Shown here: one piece after another, positions 26,191 through 41,015 of the stretch
How positions within the stretch are numbered: position 1 is the stretch's first letter
Layout: each line of letters opens with the position of its first letter
Origin: Escherichia coli
Lineage (GTDB): Bacteria; Pseudomonadota; Gammaproteobacteria; Enterobacterales; Enterobacteriaceae
Direction: 5' to 3' (one strand)
NCBI RefSeq assembly: GCF_003334815.1
Contig: NZ_QOWO01000004.1
Length of the DNA: 64,000 bases
Notes under the pieces: generated by a model
What the model was told of the DNA's origin: nothing
Databases searched by the model: none
The model's input: only the letters and a program-made list of their open reading frames with translations
Position numbers and translations under genes: made by a program

Positions 26191-27819
26191 TTATCCACTG
26201 ATATTATAAAAACATTCAGCAAGTTTTATTAATTCACTATCACTACTATTTGATATTAGTTCAACACGATTTTCTTTGCTTGTAATAAAATAGTCACTAC
26301 CTATAGCAGAAAGATGTGAAAATGGTGATGTGCATTCCTTATCAAAAAGAGAACATCCCAAAAAATAGTTCATTGAATACTGAATCCCTAACATATGCAA
26401 TATTGTTGGCGCAAAGCTTAATGAGTTTTTACCGTCTGCATCCAAGAGTTCAGGAGAGATATTTCCTCCAATAACCAGAAATGGTATTTCGCCCACAAAA
26501 TAACGAGAATCGCTATTAAATGCTTTTTTATATTCTGTCGAGGGAAATGTTGAATGATCTGCTGTTATTATTAATAATGTATTATTATAAAATGAACTAT
26601 GCCGAAAGAACTCAACAAATTTTCCCAACTGAAAATCATAGTTATAGAATTTATTGTAGAGTGGGTTGCTACCATCAAAATATTTTTCATTTGGACTATC
26701 TTGTCCATGATGAGTACCAGATGGGTAGACACCAATAAAAAAGTGTTCCTTTTTATTTTCCTGAGAGCGTAAAAAATACTGCAGTGCATTAAATGTTTGC
26801 TTATCCGTCATTCTGTCTCGTTGATAACCAATAAAATTACCCATACCAAGGACTTTATCAAAATTGAGTGTCTTCAACATTGTATTGAGTGGGCTATTTT
26901 TTTCGGTGGAAGCTATAAAATAACTTTTATAACCATACTCTTTTAATATGTCCGGTAAAGATGTTTGACGGTGAAGGTAAATATTATTAATTTCTAAATT
27001 AGATAATTGTGCAATACCTGTACCAGTATCAGTAAAACCATCCCGAAATTGATAACCAGAAGTTAACTGACCTCTTAAACCTCGAAAGGTTGCAGCAGTA
27101 TGATTATAATAATTTTTAAATCTTAGTGCTTCAGTAGATAACTTATTTAAATTAGGTGTAACTGAAAATTCTCCAACTTTGGAGTTGCCCATAATTTCAG
27201 ATGAAAACCCCTCAGTAAATATGACAATAACATTACGGCCTTTGAAACTTTTGTTATTTTCAATAGGGTTAATAAAAACTCTTGTTTTTAAAAAATTTTC
27301 CCCTGCATCTCCGATCTTCTCATTAGGCTTAAAAGTTTGCTGTAAATAGAATAACTTTGCCGTTTCATAAAAAGCATATACTGGTCCTGCACTTATGAAA
27401 GAACACACAAGCAATAATACTATACAGAGAAGGTTGAGTTTATAATATTTAATACGCGCGATTACAGTACCTGAAGGCATCGTAATGAATGAAACTATAA
27501 CAAATAAAACAAACACAAAAACAACTTTAATTAGCTCACCGATGCCTAGTGATTCAATTTCTGCAGCATTCGACAAGGCAAGAGGCATCAAATATTGCCC
27601 TGAACTAAATAGCGACGCTGCCTGTACGCCCAGAATGGATAGATACCCCCCCCACAAAATATTGCTTACAATCTTTTTTTTTATCAAAAAAATTGCCACA
27701 CTTGTTAGTGTGTACTCAATAGTAAATATAAAAACACAATCCGTCCTTCCAGAGTAAAGTAGAATACTCACAAAAATACAGAAAGGCAAAATTATTCTAA
27801 TAATACACATAAAGTTCAT
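26191..27819 (-). CDS. membrane-anchored sulfatase/alkaline-phosphatase-superfamily protein (LtaS/MdoB/phosphoethanolamine-transferase-like), 542 aa
   Basis: Several N-terminal TM helices followed by a large hydrophilic domain; AT-rich codon usage like the O-antigen genes; sits between gnd and the first H-repeat fragment. Confidence 0.6.
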   Translation of the reverse strand: MNFMCIIRIILPFCIFVSILLYSGRTDCVFIFTIEYTLTSVAIFLIKKKIVSNILWGGYLSILGVQAASLFSSGQYLMPLALSNAAEIESLGIGELIKVVFVFVLFVIVSFITMPSGTVIARIKYYKLNLLCIVLLLVCSFISAGPVYAFYETAKLFYLQQTFKPNEKIGDAGENFLKTRVFINPIENNKSFKGRNVIVIFTEGFSSEIMGNSKVGEFSVTPNLNKLSTEALRFKNYYNHTAATFRGLRGQLTSGYQFRDGFTDTGTGIAQLSNLEINNIYLHRQTSLPDILKEYGYKSYFIASTEKNSPLNTMLKTLNFDKVLGMGNFIGYQRDRMTDKQTFNALQYFLRSQENKKEHFFIGVYPSGTHHGQDSPNEKYFDGSNPLYNKFYNYDFQLGKFVEFFRHSSFYNNTLLIITADHSTFPSTEYKKAFNSDSRYFVGEIPFLVIGGNISPELLDADGKNSLSFAPTILHMLGIQYSMNYFLGCSLFDKECTSPFSHLSAIGSDYFITSKENRVELISNSSDSELIKLAECFYNISG

Positions 27820-27892
27820 GTTGGATTAAACCATTTCATTTAAAAAATTTAATGCTATTTATTCAGCATTGTATCACCGAGGAAAGATTAAT

Positions 27893-28155
27893 AAGCCCGA
27901 CTCCCGCAAAGACTGACGCCAGACAGCCTCTGCCATAGATGTTTTCCCATCTTACATCTTAAATCAACCTTGAGTACTTTATCTTTCCTCAAAATATTGA
28001 TGGCTATATGCCTTTCTGACCGTCATTTCTAACTCCTTCTTTTGCTCTGCTATTATTGACTGAAAAGAGACTGCCACACATAATTTTATCAGTCCTTTCG
28101 ATTCAAACATGAAATCAATAAGTTCATCAGGTATATCTCAAACAATATGAAGACG
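27893..28155 (-). mobile_element. H-repeat (ISAs1-family) 3-prime fragment, about 260 bp
   Basis: Minus-strand translation [36 protein letters not shown] matches the conserved C-terminal region of H-repeat/ISAs1 transposases; nucleotide-level homolog of 32672-33066. Confidence 0.7.
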
Positions 28156-28341
28156 TATTTATTACTTCAAAAAACCACAATATCATACAAACAATTTCAA
28201 TATAACCAAAAGAAAATCTTTCTAAGATATAGATACATATATTATGAGGTAAATTTTTAAAGTGTAAAATTTGAGATATATCCACCATCTCACGGATACA
28301 TTCTATCTAGTGGATGTTTTAAATAAAACTTACAACGCAGT

Positions 28342-38973: not shown

Positions 38974-39030
38974 TCCATCATTCCTTTTAATTCATCTTGT
39001 TCCACCATCACGAACAAGATACAAAAACTA

Positions 39031-39930
39031 TTAAATTGCTGTAGTCGTAAATAATTCGTTGAGCATGCGTTTCACACCAACCTGCCAGTCAGGCAAAACA
39101 AGCGCAAAGTTCTGCTGAAATTTTTCTGTATTAAGGCGAGAGTTATGCGGACGACGAGCTGGTGTAGGATAGGCTGTTGTTGATACTGCGTTGAGCTTGT
39201 TGAGTGCAAGGGGAATGCCTGCTTTGCGCGCCTCTTCAAAAACCAGCGCAGCATAATCGTGCCAGGTTGTGGTACCACTGGCTACCAGATGGTACAAGCC
39301 TGCGACTTCTGGTTTATTCAGTGCCACACGAATTGCATGTGCCGTACAATCAGCCAGCAGTTCAGCACCTGTTGGCGCACCAAACTGATCATTAATAACG
39401 GCTAATTCTTCACGCTCTTTTGCCAGACGCAACATCGTTTTGGCGAAGTTATTTCCTTTACCTGCATAGACCCAGCTGGTACGGAAAATTAGGTGCTTCG
39501 CACAATGCTCTTGTAATGCTTTTTCTCCAGCTAACTTGGTTTCACCGTAAACATTTAGCGGTGCGGTTGCATCCGCCTCCTGCCATGGTATTTCACCGGT
39601 CCCCGGAAATACGTAGTCAGTTGAGTAATGAATTACCCAGGCCCCAACTTCATTAGCCGCTTTTGCAATTGATTCAACGCTGGTCGCATTGAGTAATTGT
39701 GCAAATTCGGGTTCTGACTCAGCCTTATCTACTGCGGTATGAGCCGCAGCATTAACAATAACATCAGGGCGAATTTTTTTGACGGTTTCAGCTACACCTT
39801 CAGGATTACTAAAATCACCACAATAATCAGTGGAGTGAACATCAAGAGCAATCAAATTACCCAAAGGTGCCAGAGCACGCTGTAGTTCCCAACCGACCTG
39901 CCCTGTTTTGCCGAAAAGGAGAATATTCAT
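39031..39930 (-). CDS. rmlD: dTDP-4-dehydrorhamnose reductase
   Basis: 299 aa short-chain reductase; [13 protein letters not shown]. Confidence 0.95.
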   Translation of the reverse strand: MNILLFGKTGQVGWELQRALAPLGNLIALDVHSTDYCGDFSNPEGVAETVKKIRPDVIVNAAAHTAVDKAESEPEFAQLLNATSVESIAKAANEVGAWVIHYSTDYVFPGTGEIPWQEADATAPLNVYGETKLAGEKALQEHCAKHLIFRTSWVYAGKGNNFAKTMLRLAKEREELAVINDQFGAPTGAELLADCTAHAIRVALNKPEVAGLYHLVASGTTTWHDYAALVFEEARKAGIPLALNKLNAVSTTAYPTPARRPHNSRLNTEKFQQNFALVLPDWQVGVKRMLNELFTTTAI

Positions 39931-41015
39931 TACTGGCGGCCCTCATAGTTCTGTTCAATCCACGATTGATAAGCACCACTTTTCACATTATCAACCCATT
40001 TTGTATTGGACAGGTACCATTCCACCGTTTTACGAATCCCGCTCTCAAACGTTTCCTGCGGTTTCCAGCCCAATTCGCGGCTAATCTTCTCTGCATCAAT
40101 CGCATAACGGCGATCGTGTCCCGGGCGATCGGCAACATAAGTAATTTGCTCACGGTAAGATTTCTCTTTCGGTACAATCTCATCCAACAAATCACAAATA
40201 GTGAGCACTACATCGATGTTTTTCTTTTCGTTGTGTCCACCAATGTTATAAGTTTCACCCGCTTTACCTTCGGTTACGACGATATATAACGCACGCGCAT
40301 GATCTTCAACATACAGCCAGTCACGAATTTGATCCCCTTTGCCATAAATAGGTAATGCCTTACCTTCCAGAGCATTAAGAATTACTAGTGGAATCAATTT
40401 TTCCGGAAAGTGATAAGGACCGTAGTTATTCGAACAGTTAGTCACAATGGTCGGTAAACCATAGGTACGTTTCCACGCACGGACTAAATGATCGCTGGAT
40501 GCTTTTGATGCGGAATAAGGACTACTAGGCGCGTAAGCTGTCGTCTCAGTAAAGAGGGGTAATTGTTCTTTATTATTTACTTCGTCAGGATGAGGCAGAT
40601 CGCCATAGACTTCGTCAGTAGAAATATGATGAAAACGGAAGCTATTTTTCTTGTCGCCATCAAGAGCAGACCAGTAATTGCGAGCCGCTTCCAAAAGGAC
40701 ATAAGTACCAACAATATTGGTTTCAATAAATGCCGCAGGGCCTGTAATTGAACGATCCACATGGCTTTCAGCAGCCAGGTGCATCACTGCATCCGGCTGA
40801 TGCTGAGCAAAAATCCGCGCCATTGCAGCAGCATCGCAAATATCCGCATGTTCAAAAACATAGCGTTCAGAATCAGAAACATCAGCAAGTGATTCCAGGT
40901 TTCCGGCGTACGTTAATTTATCGACATTAACAACACTATCCTGCGTATTATTTATAATGTGACGAACTACTGCAGAACCAATAAATCCTGCGCCACCAGT
41001 AACAAGTATCTTCAC
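39930..41015 (-). CDS. rmlB: dTDP-glucose 4,6-dehydratase
   Basis: 361 aa; [14 protein letters not shown]ossmann motif and YSASK catalytic motif. Confidence 0.95.

Follow-up and report, generated by a model that had tools for sequence, protein, structure and literature searches.

Which O antigen is specified by the galF-gnd interval of Escherichia coli contig NZ_QOWO01000004.1 (assembly GCF_003334815.1), and from which other clusters were its genes assembled? The stretch of DNA analysed here, referred to as the window, comprises 64,000 nucleotides (nt). Its O-antigen gene cluster lies at positions 26191-41015 on the minus strand and consists of 12 intact open reading frames (ORFs) that are read from galF (41387-42292) towards gnd (24647-26053), the interval between these two genes (26054-41386) measuring 15.3 kb. 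An original prediction, made from the sequence alone, had described a Wzx/Wzy-dependent O unit containing rhamnose (Rha) and N-acetylmannosamine (ManNAc) on GlcNAc, and had pointed to a resemblance to O1-type clusters. Our comparisons indicate that the operon is very probably the A47-type cluster for the O antigen of serogroup O1 (“O1 non-A”). The locus has thus been described already and is an ordinary variant of the O1 O-antigen cluster.

Probable identity with the A47-type cluster of serogroup O1

An exact-sequence look-up returned identical database entries for all four proteins that were queried. The product of wekS, the last gene of the operon, corresponds to AQU71749.1, “phosphoglycerol transferase I [Escherichia coli O1:H-],” whereas Wzx, Wzy and a glycosyltransferase (GT) of 357 amino acids (aa), hereafter GT357, correspond to the UniProt entries A0A1S6PTH9, A0A1S6PTG4 (“O-antigen polymerase”) and A0A1S6PTF9, respectively. 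The name E. coli O1:H- appears only in the WekS entry, and the other three proteins were ascribed to the same submission through the UniProt accession series. We equate the E. coli O1:H- of that entry with A47 (KY115226), a reference strain for O1 non-A whose cluster was sequenced by Delannoy et al. (2017; PMC5293828) and is described there as 12 ORFs in about 16 kb, with the order rmlBDAC-wzx-mnaA-GT followed by GT-wzy-GT-GT and a wekS-like last ORF. The window carries the same 12 genes in the same order, and no difference from A47 was detected at the level of these comparisons.

The degrees of relatedness to other clusters also agree. For A47, PMC5293828 gives 89% identity of wzx to other O1 non-A strains, 89% of wzy to O10, 90-94% of the GTs around wzy to O10, and 91% of the last ORF to the wekS of O2; the corresponding values in the window are 88.8% over the wzx-mnaA-GT module to the OgN10 type, 89.8-91.8% over the O10-like block and 90.8% for wekS to O2/O50. 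We therefore base the assignment on the exact protein matches together with the concordant gene order, gene count and percentages of identity. According to the same source, A47 agglutinates with O1 antiserum and expresses an O1-reactive antigen, and it is listed as neuB(K1)-negative in Table 3. The strains studied by Gupta et al. (1992) were reportedly O1B:K1 and O1C:K-, which would favour O1C for A47.

The cluster is rare, being present in nine of 5426 complete E. coli assemblies (eight strains, one of them assembled twice); the OgN10 type occurs in 13 and the O1A type in 92 of the same genomes. All nine assemblies retain the arrangement at an identity of at least 99%, although their sources (cattle, humans and wastewater) are spread over three continents.

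Mosaic structure and the ISAs1 remnants

The cluster is a mosaic of an OgN10-like 5′ module (rmlC-wzx-mnaA-GT) and an O10-like 3′ module (GT2-wzy-GT2-GT4). OgN10 is the “O1 non-A” cluster of Shiga toxin-producing E. coli O1:H20 (CB14293 type; Iguchi, 2016, PMC4873512; PMC5293828), and it shares rmlBDAC-wzx-mnaA-GT357 with the window at about 91% nt identity (91.0% between window positions 33915-41400 and the OgN10-type locus L003). At the protein level the identities to OgN10 are 96% for RmlC (37557-38090), 89% for Wzx (36283-37560), 90% for MnaA (35135-36271) and 87% for GT357 (33996-35069). O10 has a counterpart of only the first of these, at 73%, and, judging by these values, rmlC is the first gene to separate the two putative parents. 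The distal half is related the other way round: window positions 28166-32655 are 89.8-91.8% identical in nucleotide sequence to the O10 locus L002, and the first GT2, Wzy, the second GT2 and the GT4 share 92, 85, 94 and 94% aa identity with O10. They are unrelated to the genes of OgN10, whose distal half consists of a different wzy-GT2-GT4 set (no match for Wzy, about 30% aa identity for the GTs) and carries neither wekS nor ISAs1.

Between the two blocks lies a degenerate ISAs1-family element of 1.25 kb (32656-33906, minus strand) with frameshifts and stop codons, which is about 82% identical to the intact ISAs1 copy at L002 3711-5002 and is labelled “ISAs1 family transposase, frameshifted; internal stop” in RefSeq. 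Homology to OgN10 stops at 33915, the element runs from 33906 to 32656, and homology to O10 begins at 32655. The remnant thus takes up practically the whole interval between the two regions of homology, and the modules meet at the insertion sequence (IS) itself. A second ISAs1 fragment of 149 bp (28015-28163), annotated in RefSeq as a partial ISAs1 transposase and 85-90% identical to the interior of ISAs1 in L001, L002 and L004, parts the GT4 gene from wekS (26191-27819, minus strand), which stands behind it at the gnd end.

The combination of wekS with an adjoining ISAs1 next to gnd recurs in the O2/O50 loci L004, L010 and L011. Some O10 strains (L002), which share the GT2-wzy-GT2-GT4 block with the window, have it as well. 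In PMC5293828 a three-parent origin is proposed for the A47 cluster, with wekS credited to an O2 donor; insertion sequences are not mentioned in its account of A47, the word “insertion” being absent from the paper and “transposase” occurring once. The coding sequence (CDS) of wekS in the window is slightly closer to the O10-associated copy (92.3% nt identity, the closest found) than to two O2 alleles (90.8 and 87%). From this we consider a two-parent origin, from an OgN10-like cluster and an O10-like cluster that already possessed wekS and ISAs1, at least as likely as the published one. In such a scenario the O10-like cluster would have gained an OgN10-like 5′ half by recombination at a copy of ISAs1. 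The ISAs1 element at the junction and the greater similarity of wekS to the O10 copy are details beyond the published description of A47.

ISAs1 remnants are located exactly at both module borders, and the wekS-ISAs1 junction is common to O2/O50, O10 and this cluster. The shared junction suggests that ISAs1 provides a mobile stretch of homology through which O-antigen clusters exchange segments. The borders of the modules can further be interpreted as following function, the gene for the side-branch sugar and its transferase travelling together with wzx, and the main-chain transferases with wzy.

Expected O unit and proposed assignment of the glycosyltransferases

Judging by its gene content, the cluster would be expected to make the O1B or O1C unit. 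The published unit is quoted in PMC11148006 as →3)[β-D-ManNAc-(1→2)]α-L-Rha-(1→2)α-L-Rha-(1→2 or 3)α-D-Gal-(1→3)β-D-GlcNAc-(1→, and is also described in PMC11237799. Beyond the WecA-initiated GlcNAc it contains four linkages, and the cluster encodes four GTs. RmlBDAC would supply dTDP-L-rhamnose and MnaA UDP-ManNAc, with UDP-Gal and UDP-GlcNAc provided by housekeeping genes; since UDP-Gal is a housekeeping metabolite, no gene for galactose is expected in the cluster. Synthesis would start with WecA, encoded elsewhere, placing GlcNAc phosphate on undecaprenyl phosphate. The O10-like GT4 enzyme (376 aa, 28342-29472, minus strand; many GT4 matches in NCBIfam) would then add α-Gal as a retaining α-1,3-galactosyltransferase acting on GlcNAc-PP-undecaprenol, an assignment made because α-D-Gal is the sole linkage of O1B/O1C that needs a retaining enzyme. 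The two α-L-Rha residues are ascribed to the two O10-like GT2 enzymes, because GT2 is an inverting family and the donor would be dTDP-β-L-Rha. The first of them (306 aa, 31726-32646, minus strand) scores 230.6 bits against TIGR01556 (cutoff 200.55). The other (314 aa from a GTG codon, 29482-30426, minus strand) has weak GT2-type matches in NCBIfam and is probably the second rhamnosyltransferase, as deduced from the O1B/O1C structure. In RefSeq it starts at an ATG at 30417, which gives 311 aa.

GT357 would add the β-ManNAc side branch that forms the shared O1 epitope. Its AlphaFold2 (AF2) model (predicted local distance difference test, pLDDT, 92.1; predicted template modelling score, pTM, 0.88) has the two Rossmann domains of a GT-B fold, and the best fold matches in Foldseek are the GT4-type GT-B enzymes BshA and MshA (probability 1.0, TM 0.64-0.71). 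Against the Pfam families Glycos_transf_1 and Glyco_transf_4 GT357 reached only subthreshold E values (0.03 and 0.29), and some of its homologues at 35-43% identity carry PF00534 or PF13439. A homologue directly follows the 2-epimerase gene in O1A (48% aa identity), in OgN10 and in clusters of Salmonella, Aeromonas and Acinetobacter, with the order rml-wzx-epimerase-GT-wzy kept. According to PMC5293828, the only structural feature shared by all three O1 genotypes is the ManNAc-Rha branch, and homologues of GT357 are found in all three. This distribution, the position after the 2-epimerase gene and the fact that GT357 is the sole GT of the O1-derived module lead us to infer that it is the β-1,2-ManNAc transferase that builds the O1 epitope. 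In Ralstonia pickettii (L008 5001-6053) a homologue of 35% identity is situated in an rml-wzx-GT-wzy cluster that lacks an adjacent 2-epimerase gene. Either the epimerase is encoded elsewhere in that organism, or this member of the family uses another donor.

The completed unit would be flipped by Wzx and polymerised by the O10-like Wzy, with WzzB setting the chain length and WaaL ligating the polymer. Both the linkage given to each GT and the structure of the product are deduced from the genes in this scheme. O1A differs at one position of the backbone, where its unit has β-L-Rha in place of the α-D-Gal of O1B/O1C. A DUF1972-containing GT is encoded in both O1A (L005 11092-12156) and O2/O50 (L004 18398-19474). 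The A47-type cluster has the GT4 gene in place of the DUF1972 GT, with α-Gal at the corresponding position of the O unit. The streptococcal enzyme GacB makes β-L-Rha-(1→4)-GlcNAc, a disaccharide that is presumably part of both the O1A and the O2/O50 units.

Rhamnose and ManNAc on GlcNAc, as foreseen in the original prediction, fit the published O1B/O1C units, while the D-galactose of those units had not been anticipated. The suggested likeness to O1 was right in that one protein matches an “E. coli O1:H-” entry exactly and the gene order is that of A47; the cluster is not the canonical O1A one, and the nearest named wzy is that of O10.

Alternative readings of the locus

It is very improbable that the operon is a decaying, non-functional mosaic in which ISAs1 and an expanding repeat block the distal genes and leave the strain rough or semi-rough, although two IS remnants and a hypervariable repeat do lie within it, and wzy, a GT gene or wekS is annotated as shortened or missing by RefSeq in some sister assemblies. 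In the window all 12 ORFs are intact, the arrangement is kept at an identity of at least 99% in the nine assemblies from three continents, and A47 expresses its O1-reactive antigen, as stated in PMC5293828. Scans for promoter consensus and terminators yielded no signal beyond shuffled expectation and are uninformative in themselves; predicted terminators (12 against 8.6 ± 3.1 expected) are not enriched. Furthermore, inspection of the sequence itself (cagtgctctggtagctgtaaagccaggggcggtagcgtg) shows a JUMPstart element that includes ops (GGCGGTAGCGTG) upstream of rmlB in the galF-rmlB intergenic region (approximately 41089-41138, minus strand), and the operon would be read on the minus strand from this promoter region. 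From what is established about ops and RfaH, the element signals RfaH-dependent antitermination in the operon, and this system suppresses polarity.

Still less probable is a functional O10 variant, whose carrier would be typed not as O1 but as O10 or as a new O group without a name. Wzy (85% aa identity to the “O10 family O-antigen polymerase”) and three GTs (92-94%) are close to O10, O10 clusters are the next-best genomic matches, and O1 antiserum cross-reacts with O10 according to PMC5293828. However, at the position where the window has wzx-mnaA-GT357 the O10 cluster encodes RffA (the dTDP-Fuc4N aminotransferase), another Wzx and a 303-aa protein, and the window has no homology to this region (L002 10152-14037). 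D-Fuc4NAc is described as specific to O10 and as confined to side branches, and A47, with the same proteins, serves as an O1 reference strain (PMC5293828). O10 identity was rejected on the absence of rffA and of the O10 wzx from the cluster. The 303-aa protein that occupies the place of GT357 in O10 has no match in Pfam or NCBIfam; one side-branch transferase may have replaced another at this place.

The canonical O1A (Og1) cluster of extraintestinal pathogenic E. coli, with a unit of three rhamnoses and no galactose, was rejected with near certainty: the 5′ layout rmlBDAC-wzx-mnaA-GT, including a homologue of the post-mnaA GT, is the same as in the O1A locus L005 (whose identity is confirmed by the RefSeq label “O1 family O-antigen polymerase”), the epitope β-ManNAc-(1→2)-Rha is the same, and the original prediction had pointed to an O1-type cluster, but the proteins outside RmlBDAC share only 28-61% aa identity (Wzx 42%, MnaA 61%, the post-mnaA GT 48%, Wzy 28%), neither wzx nor wzy is near-identical to its counterpart in the O1 reference (G1632 type), the DUF1972 enzyme is one of just three GTs in O1A, which lacks the GT4 gene and wekS, and a megablast search with the O1A GT-wzy region detected 92 genomes (92 records at 99% or more, one at 90-95%) that form a set separate from the 27 genomes matching the wzy-GT2 region of the window (nine with this cluster and 18 of O10 type).

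For the A47-type cluster with an O1B or O1C product, several points weigh on the other side. The identity with A47 is drawn from exact matches of four proteins and from concordant percentages. Seroreactivity with O1 and the chemistry are known for A47 only, the strain of the window being known from its genes alone, and the product may be either O1B or O1C. The closest structural relatives of the GT357 model are retaining enzymes, yet the formation of β-ManNAc from UDP-α-ManNAc would need inversion. The O10-like GTs are the presumed, putative builders of a Rha-Rha-Gal-GlcNAc backbone, and the IS remnant may cause some polarity.

A conserved LtaS-like gene at the gnd end

The gene wekS encodes a predicted LtaS-like membrane phosphotransferase of 542 aa. 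Its hydrophobic segments are found within residues 1-153 (modelled helices at 3-161), and they are followed by a predicted extracytoplasmic sulfatase-fold domain (Pfam Sulfatase, E value 1.2e-24, residues 195-479). In an alignment of 28 WekS homologues, E203, T244, H370, D421 and H422 are invariant. The metal-binding and nucleophile residues of Staphylococcus aureus LtaS are reportedly E255, T300, D475 and H476, and E203, T244, D421 and H422 of WekS show a similar spacing, the comparison of the two proteins being one of spacing. The profile built from the 28-sequence alignment matches LtaS and LtaP in the Protein Data Bank (PDB), and the best fold matches of the WekS model are VP1736, LtaP and LtaS; a single-sequence phmmer search of WekS against the PDB retrieved VP1736 and sulfatases only, and LtaS was reached by the profile.

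In Salmonella, Leclercia and another enterobacterium (L012, L013 and L014, each at 7001-8650), rhamnose-type Wzx/Wzy clusters end, just ahead of gnd, with a gene whose product is 42-55% identical to WekS; it abuts the preceding GT gene with no IS between them. This conserved position in other genera argues for a real role of wekS in O-antigen biology as opposed to hitch-hiking. A full-text literature search, which gave mostly unrelated papers, retrieved no functional study of the gene.

WekS resembles LtaS and the streptococcal protein GacH in its transmembrane N-terminus and its extracytoplasmic sulfatase-fold domain, and it keeps a conserved E/T/D/H set. Both wekS and gacH belong to clusters that specify a side-branched polysaccharide rich in rhamnose. 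In the Group A carbohydrate, a polyrhamnose with side branches, GacH attaches glycerol phosphate, and this modification went unnoticed for a long time until gacH was studied (Edgar et al., bioRxiv 10.1101/337519). On the model of OpgB and GacH it is conceivable, if rather doubtful, that WekS is an active periplasmic transferase that would put glycerol phosphate (or a related phospho-alcohol) from membrane phospholipid on the O1B/O1C, O2/O50 and O10 antigens. Unlike LtaS and GacH, WekS is a predicted periplasmic protein of a Gram-negative organism, and GacH is absent from the top 50 fold matches of its model. The O1B/O1C structures as quoted in PMC11148006 carry no phosphoglycerol substituent. 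Among the other antigens concerned, O2/O50 clusters and those of some O10 strains share wekS with the cluster of the window. To our knowledge, a phosphoglycerol substituent has not been reported for O2 or O10.

In RefSeq, wekS is annotated as split or shortened in several strains, for instance in the O10 strain TL20 (L002 1657-3276; 429 aa plus a 94-aa fragment) and in 2018-02-2CC (L001 3092-4600; a start giving 502 aa). These CDSs align to the 1629-bp ORF of the window without gaps, and the differences in annotation may be point mutations or choices of start site.

Other features of the locus

The rml genes open the operon, with rmlB (dTDP-glucose 4,6-dehydratase) at 39930-41015, rmlD (dTDP-4-dehydrorhamnose reductase) at 39031-39930, rmlA (glucose-1-phosphate thymidylyltransferase) at 38095-38973 and rmlC (dTDP-4-dehydrorhamnose 3,5-epimerase) following, all on the minus strand. 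The first three were identified from their ORFs, from what RefSeq annotates at L001, a locus of 99.9% identity, and by protein comparison, RmlB being 96-98% identical in aa sequence to its homologues in O10, OgN10 and O1A. The O-unit flippase Wzx (425 aa, minus strand, GTG start) matches Pfam Polysacc_synt (E value 8.7e-39) and gave no tblastn match in the O10 locus L002. The polymerase Wzy (347 aa, 30604-31647, minus strand) belongs to the EpsG family (Pfam EpsG, E value 1.5e-34). No serogroup-specific NCBIfam model matched either protein. The UDP-GlcNAc 2-epimerase MnaA/WecB, also encoded on the minus strand and predicted to yield UDP-ManNAc, scores 503 bits against TIGR00236 (cutoff 210).

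Between the stop codon of wzy and the start of the next GT2 gene lies a tandem array of the heptanucleotide GCATATA (30485-30595, 15.9 copies; TRF, 100% matches, score 222). Its copy number in other assemblies with the same cluster, which are otherwise at least 99% identical, is about 8, 16, 18, 22 and 40; these counts are approximate owing to homopolymer errors from long reads in some of the assemblies. In the O10 locus examined, the site holds a degenerate proto-repeat and no array. Read on the coding strand, the repeat units bring in an AUG at intervals of 7 nt.

The location between galF and gnd, the presence of wzx and wzy, and JUMPstart/ops upstream of the first gene are those of a Wzx/Wzy-dependent E. 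coli O-antigen cluster, as had been proposed and as the Polysacc_synt and EpsG matches also indicate. The gene list of the original prediction was accurate, its rmlBDAC, wzx, WecB/MnaA-type epimerase, four GTs and wzy all being intact ORFs on the minus strand, but it omitted wekS (the first 1.6 kb of the interval), the two ISAs1 remnants and the heptamer repeat, and the mosaic went unmentioned. The division of the GTs into two GT2, one GT4 and one GT-B-like enzyme holds, on NCBIfam matches for the former and on the AF2 model and its fold matches for GT357. Among the cluster ORFs no gene for a GDP-sugar or other nucleotide-sugar pathway was detected, which leaves dTDP-L-rhamnose and UDP-ManNAc as the only dedicated pathways, again as predicted. 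The closest wzx is that of OgN10, an O1 variant, rather than that of a serogroup without rhamnose or ManNAc, and the epimerase is assigned to WecB at the equivalog level with no FucNAc genes nearby. The AT-rich composition is likewise borne out (28-37% GC from 26 to 38 kb, compared with 50-56% in the flanking DNA).

Implications for O typing and O-antigen evolution

Strains with this cluster would be serologically O1 and yet possess an O10-like wzy and a wzx that is not of O1A type, so that typing by wzx/wzy or by polymerase chain reaction (PCR) can give a wrong call. For this reason an assay of its own was devised for O1 non-A by Delannoy et al. (PMC5293828). The cluster also falls outside reasoning from the O1A structure that is used for glycoconjugate vaccines (PMC11237799). 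Although not new in kind, the locus is a tidy case of modular O-antigen evolution, in which modules were swapped as units at an insertion sequence. What novelty is left lies in the putative role of wekS, the conserved LtaS-like gene found next to gnd in several clusters of rhamnose type.

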